Below are positions 14,502 to 47,366 of a stretch of DNA of 64,000 nucleotides, piece by piece. A program made the translations under genes and the position numbers. The notes under the pieces are model-generated. The model made no database searches. It worked only from the letters and a program-made list of their open reading frames with translations, and had not been told where the DNA came from. The stretch is taken from the sequence record OP557969.1; one strand, written 5' to 3'. Source of the stretch: Escherichia phage ph0011. Position 1 is the stretch's first letter. Every line of letters begins with the position of its first letter.

Positions 14502-14534
14502 CTCTTTAAATTAATTGTAAAGGGTTATATCGCA

Positions 14535-18313: not shown

Positions 18314-18334
18314 AGACCCGTATGGGTCTTTTTG
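18313..18334 (+). terminator. rho-independent terminator
   Basis: AAGACCC-GTAT-GGGTCTT hairpin followed by a T-run, immediately after the stop at 18313. Confidence 0.6.
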
Positions 18335-18344
18335 TGTTTTAGGC

Positions 18345-18373
18345 TTTACATAAGCATTCAGGTGTGTTATACT
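18345..18373 (+). promoter_or_regulatory. candidate sigma70-like promoter
   Basis: TTTACA-N17-TATACT upstream of the ATG at 18401. Confidence 0.4.
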
Positions 18374-18400
18374 TGATTTTAAATAAAATTGGAGGAATAT

Positions 18401-19548: not shown

Positions 19549-20113
19549 TTATATGACAGAACGTCATCAGATATTATATGATATCAGTACTAAAATGTTA
19601 TCAATCGTTAATAGTGGAAAAGAAATTGAAAAACAATACCTCATCCGTGATGTAGCAATTTCATCTAAATGTTGGTCCAATGAATATTACAACCACGGTA
19701 TTCTTACGATTTCTGGTGCTAGAAATATTTGTATTGTAAAAAATAAAAACAAAAGTAATGAAGAGTGTGAGATTAGAACCGATATACAAATTAAGGATGA
19801 TGGAAGTTTTTCACACTACCCATTTCATATTAGTACTATTGGTGTTTTATATAATATTAAAGTACTATTCGGTGATGAAGAGTATAAGTTAAAATATATC
19901 GACCCAGAATCGAGTACAGTCCAAGAAGACCTGTTTCAGATGAGCACAATTATGCCCGAAGAAGTTCTTAGTACTGTTGTTTTTTGTAGTTTAATTTATC
20001 ACGAATACAAAAAGAACCAATTCGATTTCCACATGATAGGAACGTACATCTTCAATAATTTGAATGTAGATCGTTTAAAAGCATTAAATTCAGCAATGGA
20101 TAAGGTGCTATAA
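19535..20113 (+). CDS. FQ-family paralog
   Basis: ATG ORF; core VQEDLFQMSTIMP. Confidence 0.65.
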   Translation: MNAYSYMTERHQILYDISTKMLSIVNSGKEIEKQYLIRDVAISSKCWSNEYYNHGILTISGARNICIVKNKNKSNEECEIRTDIQIKDDGSFSHYPFHISTIGVLYNIKVLFGDEEYKLKYIDPESSTVQEDLFQMSTIMPEEVLSTVVFCSLIYHEYKKNQFDFHMIGTYIFNNLNVDRLKALNSAMDKVL

Positions 20114-31753: not shown

Positions 31754-32033
31754 TGTGATTAATCTTACTGGATATTTTTTACAAGAATCAATGATTAAAT
31801 TTAGTGAACACTTTCCAGTACTGGATGGTATAGAAATGTGGCATGTTAAGCCACTTTTCAACTCTTTCAGTAAAGAGCACAAAATGTTATTGACAGAAGC
31901 GAGTAAATCTAATAACATATGTGAAATCAAGATTGGTGTGAATGTCTATAAAGGGTTGGTAATCTTTTTTGACAATAACAGCAATTATTTTTATATTGTT
32001 AAGGAGCATTACGTTGACAAATACAAATACTAA
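31746..32033 (+). CDS. hypothetical protein
   Basis: In-frame ATG at 31746; 95 aa. Confidence 0.45.
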   Translation: MCDVINLTGYFLQESMIKFSEHFPVLDGIEMWHVKPLFNSFSKEHKMLLTEASKSNNICEIKIGVNVYKGLVIFFDNNSNYFYIVKEHYVDKYKY

Positions 32034-32625
32034 TACATACTTTAGATATCTTCGCCTTGGTCTTTCCCTACGTCCTATTCGTGGTAAGTGTGATTCGCTT
32101 ACAGATCTTGATTATGCATATGCATTACATCATGAAGGTGTACAGTATGTATTAGGTGATTATGGCGAATTTGAAGAAACAAATGACAGTACTGCTATTA
32201 ATGCAGGTGTTGAAAATCTTAACAACATTGCTAATAGTTCTCGTCATGATATTGTGTTACAAATCCAGAACTTTATTGAACAACACACAGGTAAACGTGT
32301 TTGGTGCTATGTAGGCACTGATGCACAAATGTCAATTTCCTTCGGGAACGATGAAGGATATGTTGCACAGCTTATTATGGATTTTGAATCTGAAGAGAAG
32401 TTTTTAGAATTTAAAGAGAAAATCATCCAGTCACTCGTTGATATGGGTATCCCAGAAGATAAAATGCCAGAAGTTCAAAACATCGATGAATTTGTTTTGA
32501 TTCCATCTGATGAAAAGTATGATGCAATGTTTACTGCTCTTAATATTCCCGGAGTTATTGTGGAGTACTTTGATGATGGTGATGATAGTATCTATATCGA
32601 CCTAGATGATGATGATGATGAATAA
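32014..32625 (+). CDS. hypothetical protein with poly-acidic C-terminus, probable TTG start
   Basis: No in-frame ATG; TTG at 32014 is 7 nt after AAGGAG; C-terminal DDGDDSIYIDLDDDDDE. Confidence 0.45.
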   Translation: MTNTNTNTYFRYLRLGLSLRPIRGKCDSLTDLDYAYALHHEGVQYVLGDYGEFEETNDSTAINAGVENLNNIANSSRHDIVLQIQNFIEQHTGKRVWCYVGTDAQMSISFGNDEGYVAQLIMDFESEEKFLEFKEKIIQSLVDMGIPEDKMPEVQNIDEFVLIPSDEKYDAMFTALNIPGVIVEYFDDGDDSIYIDLDDDDDE

Positions 32626-32632
32626 TGCAAAC

Positions 32633-32659
32633 AGCCCGACATAAGTTCGGGCTATTTTT
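32633..32659 (+). terminator. rho-independent terminator
   Basis: AGCCCGA-CATAAGT-TCGGGCT hairpin followed by ATTTTT. Confidence 0.6.
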
Positions 32660-32671
32660 GTAAGGAAAAAT

Positions 32672-32941
32672 ATGAATTACAAAAATATACAATTCACTTA
32701 TATGGAATTATTTAAATTACACCATAAAAACAGAAGTTCTAACACAATTATTAAAAATGCGTTTACCCATAAACTATGGACAAATTACCTAGAAGAATTG
32801 CGTGAATATTTTGTTGATACTGAAATTTTCATTGGTGGTAAAAAACGAAAAATACTTAGAGTCGATAGTTTTGGTGGTCGATTAGTTCTTTCATATAAAC
32901 TTAATAACGATCTATGTTCTGTGAATTTGGTAGATTTATGA
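32672..32941 (+). CDS. small hypothetical protein, family C (N-terminal NIQFTY motif)
   Basis: ATG after AAGGA; MNYKNIQFTY; C-terminal beta-rich segment shared with next four genes. Confidence 0.6.
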   Translation: MNYKNIQFTYMELFKLHHKNRSSNTIIKNAFTHKLWTNYLEELREYFVDTEIFIGGKKRKILRVDSFGGRLVLSYKLNNDLCSVNLVDL

Positions 32942-33198
32942 ATTATAAAGATTTCCAATTTACATTCAAATATATTCGTAGTATAGCAGATAAAAATAAT
33001 AGTGTGTTTTTAGAAGACACATGTTCTGAAATGATTAATACTGTTCGTGATAGGATTAAAGAAAAATTCAGTACTGTTATTATTAACGATGAACATGCAG
33101 AATTTTCAGATATAATAATTCGACGAGATGGTAAAGTTGAGGTTCAGTACTACACTGATTTTGGATTTACCAGTGTTACGTTGGAGATATTCCCTTGA
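32938..33198 (+). CDS. small hypothetical protein, family C
   Basis: ATG at 32938 (ATGA overlap); MNYKDFQFTF. Confidence 0.55.
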   Translation: MNYKDFQFTFKYIRSIADKNNSVFLEDTCSEMINTVRDRIKEKFSTVIINDEHAEFSDIIIRRDGKVEVQYYTDFGFTSVTLEIFP

Positions 33199-33506
33199 GA
33201 TTAAATTTAAATGATATTCAATTTACATATAAAAATATATACGATTTGTATGATATGTATCTTTTTAGTGGGAAGATTGGTAACCATACTGAATCAAAAG
33301 AATCACCATTTATCCAAAATTACTTTGATTACTTAGATGCAGTTGGTGAATATATAAAAAAGAATTACAGTACTTACACTGATGGAGATGATATGTTTGA
33401 ATATTCAGGTATAAAATCTTATCAAGGAATTATCCATGTTGAGTTTCTTGAAAAAACTGATAGGGAGTTTATAGAGATCAAAGTGATGAAGTTAACGGAC
33501 CTGTAA
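33195..33506 (+). CDS. small hypothetical protein, family C, probable TTG start
   Basis: TTG after GGAG; LNDIQFTY motif. Confidence 0.5.
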   Translation: MRLNLNDIQFTYKNIYDLYDMYLFSGKIGNHTESKESPFIQNYFDYLDAVGEYIKKNYSTYTDGDDMFEYSGIKSYQGIIHVEFLEKTDREFIEIKVMKLTDL

Positions 33507-33516
33507 GGATTGACAT

Positions 33517-33807
33517 ATGATTCTTAATGATATACAATTCACATATAGAGTTTTATACATGGAGTACTCTCATACTGATCCTAAAGACTATCACTATTAT
33601 GAAACCTTTCGAACGATATGGATTGAATTTTTAGATGAATTAAAAGCGTATTACGGTAGTGTTCGTATTGTTCGTGATGGTAGAATTTACACTTGTAAAG
33701 ATGTTGTCAGTCATAGTGGTAAGCTACGATTAGAATTATATACAGAAGGACATGGTTGGATTGGTGTAAATTTACTGGATTTAGATAATGAAACACAACT
33801 TAAATGA
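33517..33807 (+). CDS. small hypothetical protein, family C
   Basis: ATG after AAGGA; MILNDIQFTY. Confidence 0.6.
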   Translation: MILNDIQFTYRVLYMEYSHTDPKDYHYYETFRTIWIEFLDELKAYYGSVRIVRDGRIYTCKDVVSHSGKLRLELYTEGHGWIGVNLLDLDNETQLK

Positions 33808-34066
33808 CATACAAGTGTTCTATAGCTTCGTATATGAATCTTATGCATCAGAAGGTTACTATGAAAGTGTGTATTATTTTTTATGGCAACAATACCGTAC
33901 TATAGTACGAGATTTATATATAGGAAAATATATAACATACTGTGATAGTAGAATGATGTGCACAGATGTTCTTAGTTATCATGGTAGGTTGGTATTCCAG
34001 TTCGAAGACAGTGAAGGTAGTATGTCTTTAAATGTAAGAGATTTAAAAGGAGTGCATTTTGAATAA
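33788..34066 (+). CDS. small hypothetical protein, family C
   Basis: ATG ORF; NLNDIQVFY motif. Confidence 0.55.
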   Translation: MKHNLNDIQVFYSFVYESYASEGYYESVYYFLWQQYRTIVRDLYIGKYITYCDSRMMCTDVLSYHGRLVFQFEDSEGSMSLNVRDLKGVHFE

Positions 34067-34259
34067 GTGTCCATATTGTAACAGTACTCAATTAGCTCGT
34101 TTCCGTTTAGATTCAGACTGGGCCACTGGTGCTGGTGATTTCTTTCCTATCAATGATGATGCAGAATATACAGAAGAACAGCACAAAGATTTTGATAAAT
34201 CATGGCGACCTGACATTGAGTGCATTTATTGTCTTAATTGTGAGCGTATACATGACTAA
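34059..34259 (+). CDS. small zinc-ribbon protein (CxxC...CxxC), probable TTG start
   Basis: TTG after AAAGGAG; CPYC ... CIYCLNC cysteine pairs. Confidence 0.45.
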   Translation: MNKCPYCNSTQLARFRLDSDWATGAGDFFPINDDAEYTEEQHKDFDKSWRPDIECIYCLNCERIHD

Positions 34260-34515
34260 AGCTGAACTGATCGTACAAACACTGCGTTTATTGAGGGATT
34301 TAGATATCCCACGCATGGATGTGAAACTTGAAGATATCTACATTGAATCTCTTAGTGAAGATTACACCGATACCGTAATGATGCTGAATGACGTGCTTTA
34401 TCGTATAGATAGCATCAGTCGTCTTGGAAGTACTTTAAAAGTGAATATGGAAAGAGTTGATAAACTTTATGTACATATATATAGTCTACCTATTTCAATA
34501 TTAAACTATAGATGA
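34252..34515 (+). CDS. small hypothetical protein
   Basis: In-frame ATG at 34252; 87 aa. Confidence 0.4.
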   Translation: MTKAELIVQTLRLLRDLDIPRMDVKLEDIYIESLSEDYTDTVMMLNDVLYRIDSISRLGSTLKVNMERVDKLYVHIYSLPISILNYR

Positions 34516-34802
34516 ATATTATATTGATACAAAAAACATATGCGTTATTGATGAAAGAATATACTAATACTTATGATGAAAAGTGCAGTGCAAATCATAA
34601 TATGTATAAATTCATTACCCAAGAGTACAGGGATTATATATATGCTGCGTTAGTGGGTAGATATTTCAGTACTAAAAAACGTAAAGAACTCAAAGTTGTA
34701 GATATTACTTTTTTCTACAACGGGCATATAACAATTCATGGTGTTGAACATAATTCACAAATATATCGTAACTATTCATTCAATGAGGTAACAATTATAT
34801 GA
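34512..34802 (+). CDS. small hypothetical protein
   Basis: ATGA overlap; 96 aa. Confidence 0.5.
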   Translation: MNIILIQKTYALLMKEYTNTYDEKCSANHNMYKFITQEYRDYIYAALVGRYFSTKKRKELKVVDITFFYNGHITIHGVEHNSQIYRNYSFNEVTII

Positions 34803-34981
34803 GAGTAGTATTTTTTATCTGGAGTCTTTTCTCACTAGCAGTACTGACAGTTTCAGGTGCTTATTCTTTTTTAACAATGAACACATGGTATGTTAATTTA
34901 CTATTCCCAATTGTTGGTGTCGGTTTAGGATTTACTTTACATAGTGTATGTAAGGATTACAATGACAAATACAACAAATGA
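34799..34981 (+). CDS. small predicted membrane protein
   Basis: ATGA overlap; two hydrophobic segments in 60 aa. Confidence 0.45.
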   Translation: MRVVFFIWSLFSLAVLTVSGAYSFLTMNTWYVNLLFPIVGVGLGFTLHSVCKDYNDKYNK

Positions 34982-35240
34982 AGTTCTTATTGCTGAAACA
35001 ATGAATATGATTTATTTTATTACTACGGCACAGGATTTGTCTTATCCAGTGAAATCGTTACTTAGGTCAATGTATATTGATATTGTAAAAGAATATTATA
35101 AATCTAAACACAGAAGTATTATTAGTGTTTATCGTGATTATGAAAGGATTCGTATTTTATTCTGGAACAAGAACCGAGTTCGTGAGGAATGTGATCTAGT
35201 AGATTTTAAATTAGAGAATCTTTATTGTTACAAAATTTAA
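34962..35240 (+). CDS. small hypothetical protein
   Basis: In-frame ATG at 34962 after AAGGA. Confidence 0.5.
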   Translation: MTNTTNEVLIAETMNMIYFITTAQDLSYPVKSLLRSMYIDIVKEYYKSKHRSIISVYRDYERIRILFWNKNRVREECDLVDFKLENLYCYKI

Positions 35241-35296
35241 AAGATGATAAATATTTTACAAAAGAATGTTTTTTTAGAAAAAAAAGGATTTTGTAA

Positions 35297-36781
35297 ATGA
35301 AAGTATGTACGAATTTAAATGTTACTGGTGATATAACGTCTAATGGGATGACGTTAAGCAAGAATCATAATTATGAGAATTTTAGTGACCTACAAGAAAG
35401 ATGTACTAAAATGCTTTTACAATTTGATAAACCTGAAGTATACGATCCTGATATTACTATTACAATAACTACTAAAAATGTAAATTATACATATAAAGGA
35501 CCAATTGATGGTATGTGTGATATAGAAAATCCTTCATTGTATAAAATTTCCATGTATGTATACACTGACAAAGAGTATTTTATAAACGATGTACAATTAT
35601 CAGATGATGGTAGTTTTCATTTTTCTAAAACGAATAATGGCTCAAAACAATTTAGACTAATTAGAATATCTGATAATAAATGGATTGATACATTAGAATA
35701 TGCATTATTGACTAGAAGTTATATAATACCAGAAACTGAAGATTCGCAAGTTAGAAATACAATGAAAGATCGTTGTTACACATATGATCAAGCGGCAGTT
35801 GCTATTGCATTAATGGTACAAAACCACCCAGAGATGGATAGATATGTATATGGTTTGTGTCAATTGGTTGAGGAAAATGGTGGAATAAAATTTTTTGTTA
35901 ATAGGATATCGGCATTTTCCAATAGAGCATACTATAGAATGGGTAATGCTGCATGGGTATTATATGGATTAGCTTTTTACTTATGGAAATTCCCAGATGG
36001 GGTATATGCGAATTTGGCCCGTGAAAAACTTTTGTTAGGGTTAGAATGGGTATCAACTTTTAAAGTAACTACACCCGGTGATAAAAGAGAAGGTTTATAT
36101 ATGGGTGGAAAAGGAAAATTTATCAATAATGGTTCTCAATTTGACCCGAATTACATTGCTAGTTGGTGTGCAATGGAACACAATTTAGATCTTTGGTTTT
36201 TATTTGATCTATGCTCTGTTATTGGAATTCAGAATTATGATACAATAGCAAAGGAATTACATAATAATATAAATGATAAATTGTGGATAGAAAGTGAAGG
36301 ACGTTTTCGTCAAGGTGTACATGAAACAACAGATGATAATGCTGCTGCATTAGATCAATCATCATGGGGTGGTTTGTATTCTTTATATGCAGATGGTAAT
36401 GATACAAAAGCAGTAAAATGTCACAAATATATGGAACGTTTTATGTTTGGTACGTTGGAATGTGAGGGATATACGCCTTATAATAAATTATTTGGTTATC
36501 CAAATGCAGTACAAGGTGTATGGACTGAAGGAACTGCTGGTGTGGCTTTGTTTGAACGTGCATTGGGTAATGACAGAACTGCCGCAAAATTAATTGCTAA
36601 TTTGAAGCCTATATGTGACCCAGTTTATGGATATCGTGACTCATGTGATGACCCAGATTACGATGTTCTTCCAGATTGGCCTTCCTCGTGTAATACAGCA
36701 TGGATTATTCTGGCTATTAACCCACAAGGTTTCTGGAAAGTTGAAGCCCCACTGATGGATATTGGGCTTGTGAAATATTAA
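35297..36781 (+). CDS. large hypothetical protein, possible alpha/alpha-toroid (six-hairpin) glycoside-hydrolase-like fold
   Basis: ATG after AAGGA; 494 aa; repeated aromatic/Gly-rich segments (NAAWVLYGLAFY, LDQSSWGGLY, VWTEGTAGVALF, SCNTAWIILA); fold call is my pattern-based guess. Confidence 0.5.
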   Translation: MKVCTNLNVTGDITSNGMTLSKNHNYENFSDLQERCTKMLLQFDKPEVYDPDITITITTKNVNYTYKGPIDGMCDIENPSLYKISMYVYTDKEYFINDVQLSDDGSFHFSKTNNGSKQFRLIRISDNKWIDTLEYALLTRSYIIPETEDSQVRNTMKDRCYTYDQAAVAIALMVQNHPEMDRYVYGLCQLVEENGGIKFFVNRISAFSNRAYYRMGNAAWVLYGLAFYLWKFPDGVYANLAREKLLLGLEWVSTFKVTTPGDKREGLYMGGKGKFINNGSQFDPNYIASWCAMEHNLDLWFLFDLCSVIGIQNYDTIAKELHNNINDKLWIESEGRFRQGVHETTDDNAAALDQSSWGGLYSLYADGNDTKAVKCHKYMERFMFGTLECEGYTPYNKLFGYPNAVQGVWTEGTAGVALFERALGNDRTAAKLIANLKPICDPVYGYRDSCDDPDYDVLPDWPSSCNTAWIILAINPQGFWKVEAPLMDIGLVKY

Positions 36782-36793
36782 TTATAATAAAAA

Positions 36794-36825
36794 ATGAACA
36801 TATAAAAATATATGTTCATTTTTTT
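36794..36825 (+). terminator. rho-independent terminator
   Basis: ATGAACATATA-loop-TATATGTTCAT hairpin followed by T7. Confidence 0.6.
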
Positions 36826-37632: not shown

Positions 37633-37914
37633 ATGGATTTTTACCTACACACATGGTCATACGAACAATACATTACATTATATCTTGAGATTATTAATAC
37701 TGATCCCAGATATGGTTGTGATTTTGCTGATATTATAAAAGAGTATGCAGATGAGTTTGAGTTTGTATATCTTGGCTCTGACCTATTCGTGAAGAGTGTA
37801 GGTAAAACCGGACGCATCACTGAGATTGATTATGATACTGTTAGTGTGAATTTCTATGTTGATTTTCCTTGTGATGGCGTTGATGGTGTATATTGTCTAT
37901 ATGAAATAATTTAA
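37633..37914 (+). CDS. hypothetical protein
   Basis: ATG after AAGGA; 93 aa. Confidence 0.6.
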   Translation: MDFYLHTWSYEQYITLYLEIINTDPRYGCDFADIIKEYADEFEFVYLGSDLFVKSVGKTGRITEIDYDTVSVNFYVDFPCDGVDGVYCLYEII

Positions 37915-37931
37915 ATTTTTAGGCCAGCGTT

Positions 37932-37955
37932 TGCTGGTCTTTTTTCGCAGGTACA
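37932..37955 (+). terminator. rho-independent terminator
   Basis: GGCCAGC-GTTT-GCTGGTC hairpin followed by T6. Confidence 0.6.
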
Positions 37956-37958
37956 AAG

Positions 37959-38258
37959 ATGATTAGTATAGATTTAATTAACAGTACTATAAAGTTGTTG
38001 GCTGATGTAGTGAGAGAATCCAATGGAACTGTATACCCATCAATGTATAAAATCTTTGAACGATACATCAAGGATTGTAACATATCCTTATATGGACTGG
38101 CGGTTGATATAGACGACCACTATGAAATTAATACTTCATATAAAACAGGAATGTTAATTGGTATTAATATGATGGGATATTTTCCTTATTACTGTATAGG
38201 ATTACCAGATAGTACTATGGTAGATTACCCAGCCAGTACTATTAAATTAAGAGGATAA
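37959..38258 (+). CDS. hypothetical protein
   Basis: ATG ORF 99 aa. Confidence 0.55.
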   Translation: MISIDLINSTIKLLADVVRESNGTVYPSMYKIFERYIKDCNISLYGLAVDIDDHYEINTSYKTGMLIGINMMGYFPYYCIGLPDSTMVDYPASTIKLRG

Positions 38259-38265
38259 AACTAAA

Positions 38266-38844
38266 ATGAATGTATTAGAATTAAGTACTAAGCTTATTAG
38301 TATGCGTAATGAGTGGTACGATTGGTTTTATAAAGGCACTGATATGGATTTTTCAAAATATCCATTTATGGAATCAGGATGTGATGCAAACTACCGCTGG
38401 TTGAGCAAAAGTGATTCTGGTTTATTCATTCGAATTGATGATAGTGGTCAAGGAATTTTAAAAGATTTAATTCGAGTTGAAGAACTCGTCCATGACAATT
38501 GGTGTGATAATGATCCATACCTTGGAAATATGATTTATGTAAGTGAAAATGATTGCATATTCGTTATCCAGCGTCATGGTGATTCTATGTTTTATGTAGC
38601 AGACAACAGTACACCTGACGGTGCGGCAGCCAGTGAACTTATGCCTAAGATTGGTATATTGGAATTTGGATTACCTGAGCACTTTCAGATTAGTACTTTA
38701 TACGATATTCCACCACTTGAGTTCTTTGAAGAATTTAAATTATACTACAATGATCTTCAAAAATTGAGTTCTGAACATCGAATTGAAATAATAGTCAAGT
38801 ACATGGATGGGACAAAATTAACCGATACGGGGATAGAATTTTGA
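38266..38844 (+). CDS. FQ-family paralog (outlier copy)
   Basis: ATG after GAGGA; core LPEHFQISTLYD. Confidence 0.65.
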   Translation: MNVLELSTKLISMRNEWYDWFYKGTDMDFSKYPFMESGCDANYRWLSKSDSGLFIRIDDSGQGILKDLIRVEELVHDNWCDNDPYLGNMIYVSENDCIFVIQRHGDSMFYVADNSTPDGAAASELMPKIGILEFGLPEHFQISTLYDIPPLEFFEEFKLYYNDLQKLSSEHRIEIIVKYMDGTKLTDTGIEF

Positions 38845-39530
38845 TTAAAGATTTAGATAGAATTTTATATGTACTAAGGGGTGTGATTACATTGCATCCA
38901 CAGATTAATCGCATGGAGCGTGTATTTGAATTAAAATCAATAGAAACTCCATATTCACATATATCAAATGTAGTTGGATCATTCAGTACTGAAGACTCTC
39001 CATATGATATTTGTGTATGTGAAGTACAACCAAGTTCGGATATTGGATTTGCTATTTTTGATAAAAATCGAAATCTTATTAGTATGTTTCAGTGCAATAA
39101 TCCTTTTTGGAAAACATGCCTGTATCCAGAGTGGGCTATGCTTGATCCAACAAAGAGTAACATTAAAGTGTACGACTCTAAAAACAAAGAAGTCGTTATT
39201 GATTTGGATGAGTCAATGACTGAGGAAGAACACTTTCAGTTAATGATGTTGCGAGCTATGCCTGAATACAATGCAATGATTAACACTGTGAAATATATTA
39301 ATGATACTATGCAATCATTGCGTACACATGAGTTTTGTCATCCAGTATTGTATGAAAATTTAGATTTAGACTTCAGTACTATTAAATTTAAAGATAATGT
39401 TGTAAATTACATTCAAGAGAATGTTAAATTTGATTTTATTAATACTATGAATAATAATCCAAAAACAAATTTCAGGCATCAGTATAATGAATCGCTCTCT
39501 AATGGACGCGATACCAGTTGGTGGAAATAA
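38841..39530 (+). CDS. FQ-family paralog (outlier copy), probable TTG start
   Basis: TTG overlapping upstream TGA; core TEEEHFQLMMLRA. Confidence 0.5.
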   Translation: MIKDLDRILYVLRGVITLHPQINRMERVFELKSIETPYSHISNVVGSFSTEDSPYDICVCEVQPSSDIGFAIFDKNRNLISMFQCNNPFWKTCLYPEWAMLDPTKSNIKVYDSKNKEVVIDLDESMTEEEHFQLMMLRAMPEYNAMINTVKYINDTMQSLRTHEFCHPVLYENLDLDFSTIKFKDNVVNYIQENVKFDFINTMNNNPKTNFRHQYNESLSNGRDTSWWK

Positions 39531-39531
39531 T

Positions 39532-39795
39532 ATGAATATCCAAGATAGATTACAATTGTTGTGCACACTTGAACAAGCTGCTTATGAACTTGTTAATAAA
39601 ATCTCTGAAGAACTTCCCAAAGGAACTAGAGTTCGTGTTCGTGAAATGGATTATGTAACGGGTGAAATTGAAGAAAAAGTTTTAACAGTGGTTAAAGTAA
39701 CATACTATGAGTCAGAGCTATCAATTCAATGTAAGTCAGATAATGGTTACATTTCCTACTATGGCACTGATATAGAGATGGAGGTAATCAAATGA
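39532..39795 (+). CDS. small hypothetical protein
   Basis: In-frame ATG at 39532 after GGTGGA. Confidence 0.5.
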   Translation: MNIQDRLQLLCTLEQAAYELVNKISEELPKGTRVRVREMDYVTGEIEEKVLTVVKVTYYESELSIQCKSDNGYISYYGTDIEMEVIK

Positions 39796-40934
39796 CCCTT
39801 TTACAAATATATGAAGATTTGATGCACTTATGTAATACCCGTGAGGCTTTCTTTTATGTAGATCATAAAAGTCCTGCTGGTGGCACATATCGTGTATTCA
39901 GTTATCGACTAGCATCATATACTGATTTCATGCAACCGAATGCATTGGAAACCCGTGGTTCTATGTGGGAAATCGATGACGATGGCAACATGATACGTTG
40001 TGCATCACGTTGTATGAAAAAGTTCTTTAATGCTTACGAAAATCCTGCTACGATGTTCCCTGCTGATACCAAATGTGATGACATTGCAGTAGTGATGCCT
40101 AAGTTGGATGGTTCAATTATCAGTTCTTACCGTGATAATGATGGTATTATTCGTTGTAAATCACATACCTCATTGTATTCTGACCATGCAATTAACAGTA
40201 CTCGACTAATTAACGAGAACCAGAATTTGTATCAGTACATTGATGAAGCTGAACGTTTGGGTTACACGGTTAACATGGAGTACACAAGCCCAGAGTACCG
40301 AATCGTATTGCCATATCAGGTAGAACAACTATTTGTTCTAAACGTCCGTCATCGTGTAAGTGGTGAATTGTTGTGTGGTAAAGCATTACGCGAAAAGTTT
40401 CCTTGTCTTTCACAGTACAGCACCAATATGACAGGTAAAGATATTCATCACACGTTTCCGGTAAGAAATACATTTCGTGAAAGTGTTGAAGAAGTTCATA
40501 AAATGCTTGATATTGAGGGTTTTGTTTGTATTCTAAAAGATGGGACAATGTGTAAAATAAAGACGGATTGGTATAGTTCATTACATCTAACAAAAGACAG
40601 TATCATTATTGATTCACATTTGTTCGAAGCTGTGTTAAATGGTTCAAGTGACGACTTGAAACAATTATTCAGTACTGACGAATATGCTATGCAAAAGATA
40701 TTGAGAATGGAACAATTGGTATTTTCGTGCTATAATTCATTACAAGATGAGGTAGAAAACTTCGTCAATACACACAAGCACTTGGGACGAAAGGAATTCG
40801 CAATGAAGGTTCAGGAGTGTTTGACTAATGAACTAAATCGTCAGGGCTTGGCCTTTGCAATGTATAACAATAAGTATGTTGATTATAAAGAAACTCTTAT
40901 CAAATACATGAAAGTAGTACTAAAGGACTTTTAG
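39792..40934 (+). CDS. rnlA: RNA ligase 1 (T4 Rnl1/gp63-like)
   Basis: ATGA overlap after GAGG; 380 aa; N-terminal segment FFYVDHKSPAGGTYRVFSYRLASYTDFMQPNALETRGSMWEID closely parallels T4 Rnl1 as I recall it, including the adenylylation-site lysine context. Confidence 0.9.
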   Translation: MTLLQIYEDLMHLCNTREAFFYVDHKSPAGGTYRVFSYRLASYTDFMQPNALETRGSMWEIDDDGNMIRCASRCMKKFFNAYENPATMFPADTKCDDIAVVMPKLDGSIISSYRDNDGIIRCKSHTSLYSDHAINSTRLINENQNLYQYIDEAERLGYTVNMEYTSPEYRIVLPYQVEQLFVLNVRHRVSGELLCGKALREKFPCLSQYSTNMTGKDIHHTFPVRNTFRESVEEVHKMLDIEGFVCILKDGTMCKIKTDWYSSLHLTKDSIIIDSHLFEAVLNGSSDDLKQLFSTDEYAMQKILRMEQLVFSCYNSLQDEVENFVNTHKHLGRKEFAMKVQECLTNELNRQGLAFAMYNNKYVDYKETLIKYMKVVLKDF

Positions 40935-40966
40935 TATAATCTATAGCCTAAGCACAAGGAGAAGTG

Positions 40967-41221
40967 ATGGCTAAACCTAAGTATAGAAATGACGGTTCCC
41001 TTTCTCCAACAGAGTTCAGGAAGATACAAGAAGAAATCGATACATTACAGCACAAACGCTCTAAGAAAGGTGTGAAGATTAGTAAGAAACGAATCGAGAA
41101 TACTTTCGGTTGTAGTAGTACTGAATATAAAAAGAAAAGGAAACCGAAAGATGTTAGACCGAGAATATATGATATTACTCGTTATACATCAAGACGTGAA
41201 AATAAGTTTGATCCACTATAA
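40967..41221 (+). CDS. small basic hypothetical protein
   Basis: ATG after AAGGAG; Lys/Arg-rich 84 aa. Confidence 0.55.
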   Translation: MAKPKYRNDGSLSPTEFRKIQEEIDTLQHKRSKKGVKISKKRIENTFGCSSTEYKKKRKPKDVRPRIYDITRYTSRRENKFDPL

Positions 41222-41230
41222 GGAGTTCAT

Positions 41231-41461
41231 ATGAAAGTTGAAGTTCAGCATAGTATTGTTCAAGATATGTCGGTAGTGAAATTTCATTCTCTGAAAGATT
41301 ACTTCAGGTGTATCAAGTTTCTAGAAGAATCTCATTTACAGTGGACTCCATTGAAATACAGTTCATTTAATGATACAGCTAGTATTCGTTGTGATGAATC
41401 TGTACTTGTAAAAATTACAAAACGATTTGGGTTAGGTAAAATTAATGAGCACAGTAAATGA
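41231..41461 (+). CDS. small hypothetical protein
   Basis: ATG after AAGGAG. Confidence 0.55.
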   Translation: MKVEVQHSIVQDMSVVKFHSLKDYFRCIKFLEESHLQWTPLKYSSFNDTASIRCDESVLVKITKRFGLGKINEHSK

Positions 41462-41699
41462 CCTAAAATACTACAACCAAACTGCGGATACCTTTATTAC
41501 CCATTTATATGAAGAATTCAGTCGTATCCGCAATGAATATACTGGTAAATGTATTTTATATAGCTTTTATCATAGTGGTGAAATTGAACTTGCTTACATT
41601 ACTAAAGTGAAGTTTTCAGATGACTATCAATTACTCTTTGAATTAGACAATAGTTTCGTTATTGAAGCTAATTTGATAGTTGATGTACTAGATAAGTGA
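41445..41699 (+). CDS. small hypothetical protein
   Basis: ATG ORF 84 aa. Confidence 0.5.
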   Translation: MSTVNDLKYYNQTADTFITHLYEEFSRIRNEYTGKCILYSFYHSGEIELAYITKVKFSDDYQLLFELDNSFVIEANLIVDVLDK

Positions 41700-41705
41700 G
41701 GACAC

Positions 41706-42020
41706 ATGAATAAAGAACTTGCTCAAAAAGGCATTGATCAGTTAAAGTACATTGAAAAGGAACTAATAGAATCAGTTGAATTAATGGTCGAAGATTTCGT
41801 GTTTGATTTTAAGAAAACATTGATTGGATGTAAAGTCAAATGCTGGGACCATACTATCAGGGAATGGTTTAGTACTATAATCCTTGATGTTAAAGTATCG
41901 CGTACTGCTTTTGGTAACTTAGTAAATGGTGAATGCTTTGTATACACTGAATACAATAACGGAACAAGACACCTTTCAAAAGGATGGCACAGACTCGAAG
42001 ATGTAGAATTCATTGAGTAG
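41706..42020 (+). CDS. small hypothetical protein
   Basis: ATG after GAGGA. Confidence 0.55.
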   Translation: MNKELAQKGIDQLKYIEKELIESVELMVEDFVFDFKKTLIGCKVKCWDHTIREWFSTIILDVKVSRTAFGNLVNGECFVYTEYNNGTRHLSKGWHRLEDVEFIE

Positions 42021-42032
42021 TAAGGAGTAATA

Positions 42033-42965
42033 ATGCCGACTATCACACTAACAGTTGGTTTACCTGGATGTGGTAAAACAACATGGGCAGTACAAGAGAT
42101 TAAAAAAGCCAAATCCAAGACTATCAATATCAACCGTGATGATATTCGTGAATCGATGGCTGGGTCACATGATGCTTACAAATTCAATGATGCTAATGAG
42201 AAGTACGTAACTAATTTACAGTTCAGTGCAGCAAAATTAGCAGCAGAGAATGGTTGGAATATTATTGTATCCGACACAAACCTTAAACCACATTTCCGTG
42301 AACAATGGAAAATGTGGGCTAAAGATAATGGTTATGATTATAAAGAAAAGAACTTCTATGATGATTTTGTACCAAAGGAAGACCGTGGTGCAGATGTTCA
42401 TGAATTCTTTAAGATTAAAGAGTTTGTAAAACTTTGTAAGAAATATAACCTCCAGCGTGAGCGTTCAGTACAAGATAATATCATTGACACAATGGCAGAT
42501 ACGTACTATTATAGTAAGGCATTGCATATTGGTTACTATGGTAATTCTCGTGAAGAAGCGATTATCGTTGATATCGATGGAACTCTTGCTCATAAATGGA
42601 ACCGCAATCCATTTGATGAAAGTACAGTTCTCCAAGATACACCAGACGAAGAAGTTATTTTGTCTGTTATCGCCGAAGCAGTTTTTCATAAACGCAAGAT
42701 TATTGTCATGAGTGGTCGTACTGAAGGGTGTCGTGCTGACACAGAACAGTGGTTGAAGAATTGGGGTGTTCCCTACGATGCATTGTTTATGCGAGGCATT
42801 GATGATAAACGTCCCGATGATGTTGTTAAATTCGACCTGTACATGAAAAATGTGGTTGATCATTACGATGTTAAAAAAGTATATGATGACAGAGCACAAG
42901 TCGTATTCATGTGGCGTAAACTACTTGGATTGAAAGTGATGCAAGTTGCGGAAGGAAATTTTTAG
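42033..42965 (+). CDS. pseT: polynucleotide 5'-kinase/3'-phosphatase (T4 Pnk-like)
   Basis: ATG after AAGGAG; P-loop GLPGCGKTT in kinase domain; phosphatase DxDGT motif (VDIDGTL); collinear with T4 PseT as I recall it. Confidence 0.92.
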   Translation: MPTITLTVGLPGCGKTTWAVQEIKKAKSKTININRDDIRESMAGSHDAYKFNDANEKYVTNLQFSAAKLAAENGWNIIVSDTNLKPHFREQWKMWAKDNGYDYKEKNFYDDFVPKEDRGADVHEFFKIKEFVKLCKKYNLQRERSVQDNIIDTMADTYYYSKALHIGYYGNSREEAIIVDIDGTLAHKWNRNPFDESTVLQDTPDEEVILSVIAEAVFHKRKIIVMSGRTEGCRADTEQWLKNWGVPYDALFMRGIDDKRPDDVVKFDLYMKNVVDHYDVKKVYDDRAQVVFMWRKLLGLKVMQVAEGNF

Positions 42966-42973
42966 TACAAAAA

Positions 42974-42997
42974 GGGATCAGTATATGATCCCTTTTT
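42974..42997 (+). terminator. rho-independent terminator
   Basis: GGGATCA-GTATA-TGATCCC hairpin followed by T5. Confidence 0.65.
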
Positions 42998-43034
42998 CTT
43001 TTAAGGTACATTATAGTGAATGTAACAACACAAA

Positions 43035-43193
43035 TGTTATTACGAAAAGATTATTTAGAAAATATAGAAAGATTCTATAGAATGTCTTTGTATGAAAATA
43101 AGCATAAAAATTATAATTTTGATAAACTGCTAAATTCCAGTACTGATGATTATTTATTTTCATCAATGTTTTATGTGAGAGGATTATTGTAAT
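43035..43193 (+). CDS. small hypothetical protein (52 aa)
   Basis: Hand-translated ORF below the track cutoff; TAATG overlap with the next gene. Confidence 0.25.
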
Positions 43194-43452
43194 GGATAAA
43201 TTTCATACAGATATAACACAGATAGGTAACCTTATCAATAGTCTAATTACTGATTTAGAAGAAAAGTACTTAGGGCGAAATGTATACGTAGAAATGTATG
43301 AAACATATGGTGTTATTGATATGATTTATTATAGTGCATTGAAATATGAAATACGTTTAACTGTATGTTTATATGAAAAAGGTACATTTAAAAGAAGTTC
43401 TGCAATCCGTCAAGTCGGAGTTGACGACATTGAATTATACGAGGAACAATGA
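43192..43452 (+). CDS. small hypothetical protein
   Basis: ATG ORF 86 aa. Confidence 0.55.
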   Translation: MDKFHTDITQIGNLINSLITDLEEKYLGRNVYVEMYETYGVIDMIYYSALKYEIRLTVCLYEKGTFKRSSAIRQVGVDDIELYEEQ

Positions 43453-43703
43453 TGTTTGAGCAGGACTTAGAGCTATTCAAAAGTTATATTGAGTACTTAG
43501 TTACTTTAGAAAAAGAGCTAACTGCAAAGTACAAGGGTGTTCGTGTTCAGTGCTGGTATGACGATTGTGATTATAAACGTGAACTTATTATTGACCGAAT
43601 ATATTTCATCGATGGTGTATTGAATGTACATGGTGTTAATGATTTTGGACATTCATATACTTATTCAAATAATGCAAAATTCAAGAGGATTGACAATGAA
43701 TGA
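43449..43703 (+). CDS. small hypothetical protein
   Basis: ATGA overlap after GAGGAA. Confidence 0.55.
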   Translation: MMFEQDLELFKSYIEYLVTLEKELTAKYKGVRVQCWYDDCDYKRELIIDRIYFIDGVLNVHGVNDFGHSYTYSNNAKFKRIDNE

Positions 43704-43998
43704 GTATTATCAAAATTTATTCAAATACATAAAACTAATAGATGATCTTGCTTTTGATTTTCTTAGTACTGATAAAGTTGATGAGCCTTTATATTATGAT
43801 TGTATTGGTTCACTTTGTTCATATGAAAAAGAAATATTAGAAAACAATTTACCATCAACGCTCTGTATTATCAATGGTTCTAAAGCGGTGGTGGTAGATG
43901 TTAATTTTTATAAATCACTTAATACAATTGTTTACAAGTTTGATAACACTGGGTTTAATCATATAACAGGTAATATTAAATCTGTGAGGTTCTTATGA
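43696..43998 (+). CDS. small hypothetical protein
   Basis: In-frame ATG at 43696 after AGAGGA. Confidence 0.5.
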   Translation: MNEYYQNLFKYIKLIDDLAFDFLSTDKVDEPLYYDCIGSLCSYEKEILENNLPSTLCIINGSKAVVVDVNFYKSLNTIVYKFDNTGFNHITGNIKSVRFL

Positions 43999-44291
43999 AT
44001 TTAAAACATTTGTTAGAACAGGCTCATTTATTGTATAGCTGTGCTGATGGTTCTGGTAAGGAGTATAGTGAAGTTTATTTAGAACTGTTTAGAACGGAAA
44101 TACACATAATTAGAAGATACTTAATTGATAATAAAACTGAAGTAAAAGTTAGATACCATAATGGTACTTTAAAGAATGGTATAATTATTGGATTGATAGT
44201 TTCACGAATGTCTAGTAATATTAAAGTTGCAATTAGATTAATGACTGATGATGGTGTCTACACCATAGAAGTAAGTGAGATTATATATTAA
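43995..44291 (+). CDS. small hypothetical protein
   Basis: ATGA overlap. Confidence 0.55.
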   Translation: MNLKHLLEQAHLLYSCADGSGKEYSEVYLELFRTEIHIIRRYLIDNKTEVKVRYHNGTLKNGIIIGLIVSRMSSNIKVAIRLMTDDGVYTIEVSEIIY

Positions 44292-44597
44292 ATGGATATA
44301 CAAACATTCAATAAACTTAAGTACTACGACAATGGTTTTACTATTATTATTAATGAACTGGATGGGATACCATATGAGTATCATAATGGTGTAATGAAAA
44401 TATTAAAAAGTATTTGTGATGATTTAAAAACTATATTTGAAAATGAATATGTTTACGACTTAGGCATAAACAATAAAAAATTATACATAAAGAAATTCAG
44501 TGGGACGCATTGTGGGCTGATGGTTAATTTGGGTTTATGTGCTGACAATAATTTTGAAGCATGTAGTTTATATCTGGATGAAATGCGAATCTCATGA
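44292..44597 (+). CDS. small hypothetical protein
   Basis: ATG directly after upstream TAA. Confidence 0.55.
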   Translation: MDIQTFNKLKYYDNGFTIIINELDGIPYEYHNGVMKILKSICDDLKTIFENEYVYDLGINNKKLYIKKFSGTHCGLMVNLGLCADNNFEACSLYLDEMRIS

Positions 44598-44655
44598 GAC
44601 ATATCTTGAATCGGTGATATAATTTCATTACAACACTGACAATGGAGTAGATGTT

Positions 44656-44985
44656 GTGGATGACGATTTTTTTAAAACGTTGGATAAAACGATAGTTATT
44701 CTATCTAGTTCATTAATGCACATTTTCAGTACTGATAATTCTTATAGTTCACATACATTTGATTTAATATGTAATAACTATGTAAATGGTATATCAGATG
44801 ATTTATGTCCATTTATTGCATATTTACTCGATGATAGTGAAGAATTTAATATATGCAACATTAGTTGTGGATTTGGTGATTGGATTGTGTTAAATGAACG
44901 TGGTGGGATCTGTTTATACACCGAAGATATTGGTAAATTTATATATAAAGGAGTAGAATATGTTAACAATCGCAGCAGTTATTAG
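44656..44985 (+). CDS. hypothetical protein, probable GTG start
   Basis: ORF track frame; GTG 9 nt after GGAG. Confidence 0.4.
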   Translation: MDDDFFKTLDKTIVILSSSLMHIFSTDNSYSSHTFDLICNNYVNGISDDLCPFIAYLLDDSEEFNICNISCGFGDWIVLNERGGICLYTEDIGKFIYKGVEYVNNRSSY

Positions 44986-45550
44986 TGTACTAGGCGTAGC
45001 CATTACAGGTATGCTTGCTTACAATTACAACCGTAGTGTTATCGGTTATGTACTACTTAGTCTAGTACTAACACCAGTACTAGCCATCGTTACTTTATTA
45101 GTATTAGGTGAACGTAAAATCAACTTCATTATTAATGATAAACGTGATCAAGTTACACCCGAACCCGAAAAAGTTATCAATGAAGAACGAGAAGAGCAAA
45201 AAGTTGAAGTTCAAATGAAAGTGAATGTTCACAACGCACTTGATGAAACTGACCCTAAAGTTAATATTACTGTTGTTCCTAAAGTCAATGAAGTAAAGCC
45301 TAAAACAGCAACAAAAAGTTCTAAATCAAAGAAAAGCACCAAGACCACAAAGAAAGCTCGCAACACAAAAGGTAAGAATAAAAACAAAGTTCAAGATGAA
45401 CCACAACAAGACACACATGATCATACTTCCCATATTATTACAGCAGCTACAACCGCAGCAGTTGTGACACCATATATCTCTTCTGCTGATACTGGTTCAT
45501 ATGATAGCTCTAGCTGTGATTCAAACACTAGTTCTGGAAGCGGTGATTAA
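44960..45550 (+). CDS. predicted membrane protein with Lys-rich basic tail
   Basis: ATG after AAGGAG; two N-terminal hydrophobic helices then KSSKSKKSTKTTKKARNTKGKNKNK. Confidence 0.6.
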   Translation: MLTIAAVISVLGVAITGMLAYNYNRSVIGYVLLSLVLTPVLAIVTLLVLGERKINFIINDKRDQVTPEPEKVINEEREEQKVEVQMKVNVHNALDETDPKVNITVVPKVNEVKPKTATKSSKSKKSTKTTKKARNTKGKNKNKVQDEPQQDTHDHTSHIITAATTAAVVTPYISSADTGSYDSSSCDSNTSSGSGD

Positions 45551-45552
45551 CA

Positions 45553-45885
45553 ATGAAACATCTTGTACAATATAATCAGTACTTGATTTCATTACACAAA
45601 ATGAAAGATGATTTCTTTAGAAGTGCTGAGATTGAACTCGTTGGTAAGATAGTAAAATTTACTGACGAGTATATCAAAAGATACACTGACATAGATGATG
45701 ACCCAGAGTATGAATCATACTACCAGTACATAAATCAATATACTAGAATGCGAATTGTTGGAATTTTAAAATTCGGTATACGATTAGTTGCACATGTGGA
45801 ATTCATCAATTACGAAGCAATTGATGCAGCAGCCTTTGGGGATGAAATTAGTTTAGATCATCTTATACTAGTTGATGAGGAATAA
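45553..45885 (+). CDS. hypothetical protein
   Basis: ATG ORF 110 aa. Confidence 0.55.
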   Translation: MKHLVQYNQYLISLHKMKDDFFRSAEIELVGKIVKFTDEYIKRYTDIDDDPEYESYYQYINQYTRMRIVGILKFGIRLVAHVEFINYEAIDAAAFGDEISLDHLILVDEE

Positions 45886-45887
45886 TA

Positions 45888-46103
45888 ATGATTACATTTT
45901 TTGCAATATATGGGTTTGTTGCGTTTTGTTCATTTATATGTAACTTTCTAGTACTAAATTGGAATTGTTTCAAAGATGAAATCATAACTGCAATGAGTCT
46001 GCAATCAGCAGCACTAATGGCTATAATTTGGCCTGTAACTATGGTGTATCTTTTTATCTCAATAATAAAAGATATCACATCCCACTTCAAGAGAAAGAAA
46101 TAA
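45888..46103 (+). CDS. small predicted membrane protein
   Basis: ATG ORF; hydrophobic 71 aa. Confidence 0.5.
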   Translation: MITFFAIYGFVAFCSFICNFLVLNWNCFKDEIITAMSLQSAALMAIIWPVTMVYLFISIIKDITSHFKRKK

Positions 46104-46354
46104 TGTTTAACACAGACTATTCACATTTACGATATCTTATGTCTTTGGCTGATGATTTTATTAATGATTTGAAGCCTAAGTATATTGGACAGGAAGTAAG
46201 TTTGATAAACTCTAGGGGTTATGGAAAGTACATTATTACTGATATGTATATTAGCGGTGGAGAATGGCGTTTCAAAGTTAATACGTATCTTAAAGATGGT
46301 TCTTTTGCAGGTACACAAGTTACAAAACACACTAACATTATATGGTTGAAATAA
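46103..46354 (+). CDS. small hypothetical protein
   Basis: ATG at 46103 (TAATG overlap). Confidence 0.5.
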   Translation: MFNTDYSHLRYLMSLADDFINDLKPKYIGQEVSLINSRGYGKYIITDMYISGGEWRFKVNTYLKDGSFAGTQVTKHTNIIWLK

Positions 46355-46356
46355 TA

Positions 46357-47100
46357 ATGAAACATTTCTTAGAAGTTACAGTACCGGATGATAAAGATTT
46401 ATATATTGTTGGTGATTTACATGGTAATGGAAAACTGTGGGACGCGACTAAGAAAGAGTTCGGTGTCACCAACGAAGATTACGTGTTTTCTGTTGGTGAT
46501 GTTATTGACCGTGGTGACCAGAACTCTAAGCTTCTATTTGAATTCCTTTTCGGTGAAAACCGTTTTATGATTACTGGGAACCACGAGATGATGTGTGTTG
46601 ATTCTGAAACTCATCGTGACTGGTATCACTGTTGGGTCCAAAATGGTGGAGATAAGTTCATTGATGAAGTTGGGGTAACAGGCATTCAATTCTTTCGTCA
46701 GTACTTAAATGATCTCCCTATGATTATCCAAATCAATCACCGAGGATTGAAGATTGGGTTAGTTCATGCAGGTGTTCCATTGGAATATACAACATGGGAA
46801 CGTTTCGTTAATGGGACAAAATCACTTAGTGCTGATATAATTGAGAAGTGCTTGTGGGAACGTGATACATTTGACTACTGCAAGAAAAATAACACATATT
46901 ACGCCCCTAGACTTGATGGTATCCATTGCGTATTTAGTGGTCATACCGCAGTATCTGACCCACTCATTTATGGTAATCGTATTTGGATTGATAGTCAGTT
47001 TTTAACAGGTGATTTGACTCTTGCAACTCCACAAAGCGGTGGGATGAGATACTTACGTAAAGAAAAAGATGAGTACTCATTCAATCGTTTCAAAAGGTAA
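46357..47100 (+). CDS. metallophosphoesterase (Ser/Thr-phosphatase-like)
   Basis: Motifs GDLHG, GDVIDRG, GNHE characteristic of calcineurin-like phosphoesterases; start could also be the ATG at 46342. Confidence 0.75.
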   Translation: MKHFLEVTVPDDKDLYIVGDLHGNGKLWDATKKEFGVTNEDYVFSVGDVIDRGDQNSKLLFEFLFGENRFMITGNHEMMCVDSETHRDWYHCWVQNGGDKFIDEVGVTGIQFFRQYLNDLPMIIQINHRGLKIGLVHAGVPLEYTTWERFVNGTKSLSADIIEKCLWERDTFDYCKKNNTYYAPRLDGIHCVFSGHTAVSDPLIYGNRIWIDSQFLTGDLTLATPQSGGMRYLRKEKDEYSFNRFKR

Positions 47101-47105
47101 TAATT

Positions 47106-47366
47106 ATGCATGACGTAATTAAAAAATACTTAAATGATAGATATGTCCTGACAAAATCTATTAATTCTATACTAAAAGACCATGCTAATCAAATACATGA
47201 GATTCTATCCGAGAAACTTATTGGTTGTTCAGTTGAATTTGACTACAAAAAGAATATCGGAGTTATTCGACGTGTAGTTGATGTTTATGAACAAAATGTA
47301 TATGTTGAAATTGTATATGATGGTAAATTATTACAACTAAGTACTGAAGATTTGACATTTTTATAA
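47106..47366 (+). CDS. small hypothetical protein
   Basis: ATG after AAAGG. Confidence 0.55.
   Translation: MHDVIKKYLNDRYVLTKSINSILKDHANQIHEILSEKLIGCSVEFDYKKNIGVIRRVVDVYEQNVYVEIVYDGKLLQLSTEDLTFL

Follow-up and report, generated by a model that had tools for sequence, protein, structure and literature searches.

The five small tandem genes described here encode a lineage-restricted, tandemly expanded and fast-evolving family of small soluble proteins, a description in which we have high confidence. More tentatively, with a rough probability of 0.45, we propose that they represent a birth-and-death family of cytoplasmic proteins that would be made before the late phase and would act as binders in host interaction or counter-defense.

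A tandem array of small genes in an Asteriusvirus-type phage

The window analyzed here, a 64-kb stretch of Escherichia phage ph0011 (64,000 nucleotides, OP557969.1), has a G+C content of ~31% and carries almost all of its long ORFs on the + strand. The source phage is an E. coli jumbo phage of the 121Q/PBECO4 type (Asteriusvirus). A megablast search with positions 32000-36800 matched 34 phage records, all from E. coli or Salmonella jumbo phages of this type with genomes of 310-386 kb; the closest was WPEC5 (89.5% identity), and 121Q showed 80.8%. Named genes in the neighborhood encode Dam methylase, cytidylyltransferase, RNA ligase 1 (Rnl1), polynucleotide kinase (Pnk), a NinI-like phosphatase and DNA ligase. 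In annotated relatives, all genes of the array region are labeled 'hypothetical protein', and about 83% of the genes in 350-kb phages of this group lack a functional assignment (PMC7247149). Two larger paralog arrays are present in the same window.

As the initial annotation had described, five + strand ORFs follow one another across 32672-34066 (Table 1). They are closely packed, with overlaps at three of the four junctions. Of the five, ORF2 has diverged the most; its ATG, at 32938 within a longer ORF from 32914, shares an ATGA with the stop codon of ORF1. ORF5 overlaps ORF4 by 20 nt. The suggestion that one of the genes uses a TTG start was borne out for ORF3, whose TTG at 33195 overlaps the ORF2 stop as TTGA, has a GGAG 8 nt upstream, and is kept in four phages, namely the source phage, WPEC5, 121Q and a metagenomic relative. 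In these same four phages, tGGAGatattccc lies directly 5' of the TTG and no alternative in-frame start precedes the motif; codon 2 varies among relatives (AGA, AAA or GGA). Internal starts chosen in some annotations (WPEC5; 121Q gp426 for ORF5) drop the conserved N-terminus.

Table 1 Features of the array region in the 64-kb window
Feature	Position	Strand	Length (aa)	Description	Profile or database match
Terminator-like site	32633..32653	+		G+C-rich hairpin and T-run, 18 nt 5' of ORF1; small-gene block starts here	
5' boundary gene of expansion slot	31969..32625	+	218	Acidic tail, conserved; not a family member	phrog_15575
Family member 1 (ORF1)	32672..32941	+	89	MNYKNIQFTY...; pI 9.5	Family HMM E 2e-29; phrog_32291
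Family member 2 (ORF2)	32938..33198	+	86	MNYKDFQFTF...	Family HMM E 2e-25; phrog_35943
Family member 3 (ORF3)	33195..33506	+	103	M-RLNLNDIQFTY...; TTG start	Family HMM E 2e-29; phrog_21004
Family member 4 (ORF4)	33517..33807	+	96	MILNDIQFTY...; AlphaFold-modeled	Family HMM E 2e-32
Family member 5 (ORF5)	33788..34066	+	92	MKHNLNDIQVFY...	Family HMM E 1e-30
3' boundary gene of expansion slot	34059..34259	+	66	CxxC...CxxC zinc-ribbon-like, conserved; not a family member	phrog_22354
Candidate eighth member (very weak)	34252..34515	+	87		jackhmmer inclusion E 8e-4
Family member 6 (distant)	34512..34802	+	96	MNIILIQKTY...	HMM E 5.5e-5; phrog_28826
Candidate seventh member (weak)	34962..35240	+	92	From ATG 34962; ortholog of 121Q gp431	HMM E 0.0056

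Homology extends beyond the N-terminal motif

ORFs 1-5 share the N-terminal pattern N-x-x-[DN]-[IF]-Q-[FV]-[TF]-[YF] at residues ~2-10, which is degenerate (IILIQKTY) in the ORF at 34512. Six-frame translation of the window yields six occurrences of the core motif [IF]Q[FV][TF][YF], five of them at residues ~6-12 of ORFs 1-5, whereas 200 shuffles averaged 0.8 and never exceeded 4. Overall, the window paralogs are 12-25% identical (35% in helix 1 of the predicted fold and 12-17% elsewhere), and pairwise phmmer connects only ORF1 with ORF4 and ORF4 with ORF5 (E ~1e-5 to 3e-6). An HMM built from ORFs 1, 4 and 5 retrieves ORF3 (7e-7), ORF2 (7e-5) and the ORF at 34512-34802 (6e-5), and the search converges with nothing beyond these six members among the 352 ORFs of the window.

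The first 14 residues were cut from all 36 sequences, and each orthogroup was compared with the rest by hhalign. Probabilities remained at 98.2% for ORF1, 89.2% (E 2e-6) for ORF2, 94.5% for ORF3, 98.7% for ORF4 and 99.0% for ORF5. Because the matches survive this truncation, with 89-99% probability, the relationship is not restricted to the N-terminal hexapeptide, and sequence comparison identifies ORFs 1-5 as true paralogs of one family. In HMM leave-one-out searches without the N-terminus, ORFs 1, 3, 4 and 5 were retrieved clearly (1e-5 to 3e-15), whereas ORF2 (0.015) and the 34512 ORF (E 1.9) were weak.

These results also bear on the idea that the N-terminal segment is a signal at the DNA or RNA level, such as a repeated regulatory element or a recombination site, carried by ORFs that merely look related. 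A sigma-70-like match, TTGACA-17-TACAAT (33510-33538), does overlap the motif codons of member 4. However, the motif codons differ synonymously among both paralogs and orthologs (ATT/ATA, TTT/TTC, CAA/CAG and ACA/ACT), and the segment is modeled within a helix. Together with the homology that persists after removal of the segment, the codon differences largely refute this explanation, to which we assign almost no probability.

The single family extends past the array. A distant sixth member is the ORF at 34512-34802, with two unrelated small genes between it and the array: its orthogroup reaches an hhalign probability of 86.8% at full length and 36.7% without the N-terminal 14 residues, and Foldseek aligned the member-4 model with its slurp01 ortholog at E 1.7e-4 and a TM score of 0.71 over 90 columns. 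A family of five paralogs, as first described, is thus correct for the array and too small for the window, which holds at least six members. The ORF at 34962-35240 is a weak candidate for a seventh (hhalign 15-40%; Foldseek to 121Q gp431, A0A097EY16, E 0.015 and TM 0.45). The one at 34252-34515 is a very weak candidate for an eighth, with hhalign probabilities of merely 5-11%; in 121Q and A4, its slot holds an alternative allele that is ~30% identical and reaches an HMM E of ~0.006.

The motif is predicted to form part of a compact helical and beta-sheet domain

AlphaFold2 was run on member 4, the sole member modeled directly, with a 27-sequence family alignment, and returned a model with a pLDDT of 90.3 and a pTM of 0.79. 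The family is predicted to fold as one compact domain in which an N-terminal two-helix hairpin (helices 3-19 and 25-46) packs on a four-stranded antiparallel beta-sheet (strands 50-53, 56-66, 69-76 and 80-85), followed by a short C-terminal helix. In a Foldseek search of BFVD, the significant matches to this model were orthologs of family members, with TM scores of 0.71-0.78 for those of other members. The family proteins have GRAVY values of -0.3 to -0.5 and contain no long hydrophobic segment. No fold similarity to PDB-solved phage counter-defense or host-takeover proteins was found.

Conserved positions fall in helix 1 (N2, Q7, T9, Y10, L13 and Y17), helix 2 (W35 and Y/F38) and the sheet, where D62 and S65 lie in strand 2 and the invariant G68 in the next turn, and also include L89. 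N2, Q7 and Y10 are at least 90% conserved in the 27-sequence alignment, and Q7, T9 and Y10 are 81-92% conserved across 36 sequences. Helix 1 begins at the motif segment, which is modeled within it at a pLDDT of ~92, and I6, Y10, L13 and Y17 are spaced as expected for residues on a single buried face of the helix. From the model, we infer that the 'hexapeptide' probably caps helix 1 and supplies its core face instead of serving as a free signal. A role as an N-terminal degradation or recognition tag would be disfavored by the confident placement of the motif inside the helix.

The family is confined to one group of jumbo phages

When 5.8 billion clustered proteins were searched with a profile, 35 matched, and every one came from this phage group or from E. 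coli assemblies and metagenomes carrying such phages. Exhaustive HMMER searching of 1.84 billion representatives gave 18 matches, 17 of which are family members or fragments. With tblastn, an ORF4 ortholog was found in 35 phage records, one copy in each, all from E. coli or Salmonella jumbo phages of this type. The family is therefore restricted to this jumbo phage group. The eighteenth HMMER match, a 1243-aa repeat protein (P0044), was rejected as a homologue, since its E of 7e-5 came only from summing ten matches to 37-residue repeats.

Searches of Pfam-A, NCBIfam, PADLOC and PDB sequences gave no significant match for the family proteins. The description of a separate, expanded family without assigned function was upheld in that homology runs past the hexapeptide and no library supplied a function. 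In PHROGs, the family is scattered over four groups that are neither connected nor annotated (phrog_21004, phrog_32291, phrog_35943 and phrog_28826); the window proteins match their own groups at E 1e-24 to 8e-45, with cross-matches between 21004 and 32291; profile-profile comparison and the shared predicted fold join them here. Outside the group, an uncharacterized 89-aa protein (H6X4R2) of Klebsiella phage RaK2, a jumbo phage that belongs to the same broad clade but is more distantly related, has a similar predicted structure (Foldseek E 9e-3, TM 0.61-0.65 over 83 columns), but it is 16% identical and was missed by all sequence searches, so that it is at most a putative homologue.

Copy number turns over and protein divergence is accelerated

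The array occupies a slot between the conserved 218-aa gene and the zinc-ribbon-like gene, the latter being 97% identical in WPEC5, 121Q and A4 and 89% identical in JNE01. This slot holds five family genes in the source phage, WPEC5, 121Q and A4, three in JNE01, and one in a divergent metagenomic relative (L009/L010). A neighbor-joining tree separated the family into six orthogroups whose origin predates the split of these phages and in which individual lineages have gained and lost copies: groups 2 and 3 are missing from A4, which has additional group-1-like copies, and the JNE01 copies are strongly divergent. The origin of the family is best explained by successive tandem duplications within a single syntenic slot, after which the copies diverged rapidly. 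Some assemblies contain apparent chimeras (P0031).

Compared with 121Q, family members are 55-76% identical, whereas Dam, cytidylyltransferase, Rnl, Pnk and the zinc-ribbon gene are 88-98% identical. The family dN of 0.14-0.34 is 3-10 times higher than that of the flanking genes (0.006-0.057), and dN/dS is 0.11-0.61 versus 0.02-0.13 in the flanks, with all values below 1. These data show that protein evolution is accelerated under residual purifying selection. In ORF2, ORF4 and ORF5, dS is at flank level and dN is elevated. In three members dS is high (~1.4-1.5), which suggests at the sequence level that their alleles may have been replaced by older ones. Divergence is mosaic: ORF4 is 94% identical to WPEC5 but 60% identical to 121Q, and ORF4 and the 34512 ORF, taken together, show 94-96% identity to WPEC5 and 55-60% to 121Q. 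ORF5 of the source phage is a distinct allele, with 59% identity to the allele common to WPEC5, 121Q and A4.

The same measurements could be read as those of dispensable ORFans that drift under relaxed constraint, the array being a by-product of unequal recombination, within an accessory region dense in genes, and its copies having no distinct functions. The raised dN, a dN/dS of up to 0.61, a copy number that ranges from 1 to 5 and the apparent chimeras are what such drift would produce. However, reading frames are intact in all six orthogroups in every phage examined, dN/dS stays below 1, the conserved motif codons show synonymous changes, and one glycine is invariant alongside the conserved Q7, T9 and Y10. 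Given also a confidently predicted fold and orthogroups that predate the divergence of these phages, drift is an unlikely account of the array.

The array lies in a putative pre-late context

The terminator-like hairpin ahead of ORF1 marks the start of the small-gene block; the nearest other terminator-like sites on the + strand are at 29188 and 37921. Its stem is kept, with differing loops, in WPEC5, 121Q, A4 and JNE01, and is absent from the one-copy metagenomic relative (L009). A sigma-70 promoter scan of the window was uninformative, with 48 sites versus 52.7 expected, which is chance level. The T4-type late promoter core TATAAATA, by contrast with expectation, is strongly avoided, with two copies in the window versus 15.1 +/- 3.6 expected. 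Both copies are on the - strand and none is on the + strand of the whole window; one lies ~38 nt upstream of the sole long minus-strand gene, which encodes 890 aa with intimin-like Ig repeats. In the related phage CBB, for which a late motif resembling TATAAATA has been described, the corresponding stretch of short hypothetical genes has been suggested to be early (PMC5259590). Literature searches found no Asteriusvirus transcriptome and no functional study of the array genes.

In phage phAPEC6, gp384c and gp386c-389c, the orthologs of five of the six members, are missing from the 62 virion proteins detected by mass spectrometry (PMC7247149 Table 1); this comparison covers those five, the ORF5 (FAM5) ortholog being unannotated in phAPEC6. 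Jumbo phages of this group do have many uncharacterized virion proteins (PMC7247149), and assembly chaperones or minor components of an unusual virion with hair-like fibers and an inner body would be one use for such proteins, the more so with a tail-protein-like gene 1.2 kb downstream. Against this, the orthologs are not on the virion list, the + strand carries no late-promoter motif, and the tail-like gene is an insertion missing from all relatives, leaving a structural or assembly role highly unlikely. The tail-protein-like gene was itself horizontally acquired.

Small size and the pre-late context would also be compatible with regulators of phage or host gene expression, that is, small factors binding RNA polymerase, sigma or nucleic acid, like T4 AsiA, Alc or gp33 or T7 Gp2, with paralogs tuned to particular promoters or stages. 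Three members of the 34512 orthogroup weakly match Pfam PF25742 'Phage Gene 33 protein' near full length (residues 12-90 to profile positions 7-88 of 100), and some BFVD neighbors of the model of a downstream small protein, presented below, are annotated as T4-like 'transcriptional regulator'. The best PF25742 score is 17.1 bits (E 0.0067) against a gathering cut-off of 27 bits, and only these 3 of 27 family members match the profile; we rejected membership in PF25742. A regulatory role appears quite improbable.

Downstream small proteins form a network of their own

The initial annotation had raised the possibility that small proteins at 37633, 39532, 43449-44291 and 46103-47366 belong with the array, but none of them joined the family by sequence at robust thresholds. 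The family HMM scored the downstream small proteins at E 0.01 or worse, and hhalign between the family and the downstream network gave at most 15% in an all-against-all comparison and, in a separate run, 26.5% (43995) and 8% (46028). In a 644-ORF database, jackhmmer linked the two sets in both directions and recruited 0 antisense decoys; the link was lost in a 1492-sequence database with 848 reversed and shuffled decoys. Merging the two sets by iterative search was therefore rejected, as its outcome hinged on threshold and database size. The downstream proteins instead form a loose hhalign network of their own around 46103-46354, which reaches 50-88% to 43192, 41706 and 45553 and 20-35% to 43449 and 37633.

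Structure prediction may bring the two sets closer. The AlphaFold model of 46103-46354 (pLDDT 85.8) has one long helix (H3-27) and five strands, and its top BFVD match is 121Q gp426, the ORF5 ortholog annotated without helix 1 (E 6e-3, TM 0.61-0.64). The network (46103-46354, 41706, 43192, 43449, 47106, 37633, 41445 and 45553) resembles the family in size class, strand, region and phage-group restriction, and, by prediction, in an N-terminal helix that leads into a beta-meander beginning with a [YL]-x-G-x-x-V motif. It differs in its one long helix and five strands, versus two helices and four strands, and in lacking the N-D-I-Q-F-T-Y helix, and the sequence links are borderline. From the predicted structures, a common helix-plus-beta-meander core of family and network is plausible. 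The family is thus separate in terms of sequence, as first proposed, and may cease to be so at the level of the fold, given the similar predicted core of 46103-46354.

A broader reading would have the six to eight members and ~10 downstream small proteins (37633-47366) descend from one repeatedly duplicated and remodeled helix-plus-beta-meander scaffold in Asteriusvirus and RaK2-type phages and form a binder library. We hold this to be doubtful. If true, each binder domain of the single-scaffold library would neutralize a different host defense or host factor, and the extra N-terminal helix with its N-D-I-Q-F-T-Y cap would be the mark of one sub-branch.

Discussion

In the model that we favor, the array proteins would be produced ahead of late gene expression, each paralog would bind a different protein of the host or of a competing element, and binding would serve host takeover or the neutralization of defenses, with duplication and divergence broadening or renewing the range of targets. 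This binder model is based on the pre-late context, the conflict-associated neighbors, the turnover in copy number, the mosaic alleles, the raised dN under persisting purifying selection and the differing surface charge of the paralogs. Dam methylase, Rnl1, Pnk and NinI-like phosphatase are genes typical of host-conflict regions, and the spread of paralog pI from 4.7 to 9.5 fits different partners.

Four PHROGs that lacked annotation are merged here into a single family for which a confident structural model is available. The family occupies a slot that has grown from one copy to five and evolves several times faster than the neighboring genes. Since these phages are considered for therapy against pathogenic E. 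coli, the array offers a compact, testable set of candidate host-range or counter-defense factors.

Large phages commonly carry lineage-specific arrays that encode small, fast-evolving accessory proteins, and large eukaryotic DNA viruses carry multigene families of tandemly amplified, fast-evolving accessory genes, to whose logic that of a single-scaffold binder library would be comparable. Copy-number variation among close relatives, raised non-synonymous divergence and mosaic alleles liken the array to the amplified accessory and counter-defense genes of large viruses. In phage T6, tandem amplification of anti-defense loci has recently been reported (PMC13096335), and this segmental amplification resembles the array in tandem duplication within one slot. 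The array copies are old and only 12-25% identical and do not stem from recent amplification; the analogy is one of evolutionary mode and not of family membership. The array is a new, uncharacterized example of a familiar phenomenon rather than a new kind of system.

Gene content and variation around the array

In the alignment of array upstream regions (A6), the related jumbo phages A4 and JNE01 keep the GCCCGA/TCGGGC stem of the terminator-like hairpin that precedes the array, with differing loops. The hairpin is missing in L009, a metagenomic relative with one family copy in the array slot, where the family gene directly adjoins the flanking gene. Downstream, the 87-aa gene shares 99% identity with WPEC5, and the occupants of its slot in 121Q and A4 show only ~30% identity to it over 57 residues; it is an instance of allelic replacement inside a block that is otherwise collinear.

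The 494-aa ORF had no counterpart at the corresponding position in any of 34 related jumbo phages (0/34). It shares 56% identity with a 'tail protein' from phiSTEC1575, an Stx2k lambdoid phage, and ~28% with Microbacterium phage minor tail proteins, and a Pfam search returned no match. The ORF appears to be a tail-spike or depolymerase-like gene gained by horizontal transfer.

Features of the window discussed in this part
Feature	Coordinates	Strand	Remark
Terminator-like hairpin	32633-32653	+	
87-aa gene	34252-34515	+	
494-aa ORF	35297-36781	+	directly downstream of weak candidate gene 34962-35240
Small-ORF network	37633-47366	+	ORFs 46103, 41706, 43192, 43449, 47106, 37633, 41445, 45553
Network ORF with predicted structure	46103-46354	+	
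Ten-member paralog family	1880, 6520, 6942, 7298, 7593, 10007, 13247, 13596, 15465, 19535	+	~105-190 aa; phmmer E < 1e-4
Nine-member paralog family	8190-11216, 14535, 15005, 16212	+	~150 aa; phmmer E < 1e-4
TATAAATA copy	58067-58074	-	~38 nt upstream of the 890-aa gene
890-aa protein gene	55357-58029	-	intimin-like Ig repeats; sole long minus-strand gene of the window

Relatives of the family and other small proteins

In P0031 (Salmonella phage SD-6_S16), parts of an ORF2-type and an ORF3-type paralog are joined as a chimera, whereas in P0030 the reading of an ORF6-type protein continues into the next frame; the two reflect either paralog recombination or assembly errors. P0044, a metagenomic protein of 1243 aa, has ten ~55-residue helix-plus-hairpin repeats containing FIKDNQVKLPGFTVESFNVLSNRDGKLKIKVKDNNNSFQGTVEITYSVK, every one of which aligns to positions 52-88 of the family profile, a likeness that is probably due to convergence.

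Profile-profile comparison linked eight small ORFs into a loose network, in which an N-terminal helix is followed by a common [YL]-x-G-x-x-V motif; five strands and one long helix were predicted for one of them. Separately, all-against-all phmmer (E < 1e-4) recovered two paralog families larger than the array, both within 1880-20113 (+).

Late promoter motif

The T4-type late promoter core, TATAAATA, is strongly depleted, occurring twice in the whole window against an expected 15.1 +/- 3.6, with both copies on the minus strand. This depletion, together with the copy preceding the 890-aa gene, suggests that non-late genes avoid the motif and that the late promoters are T4-like.
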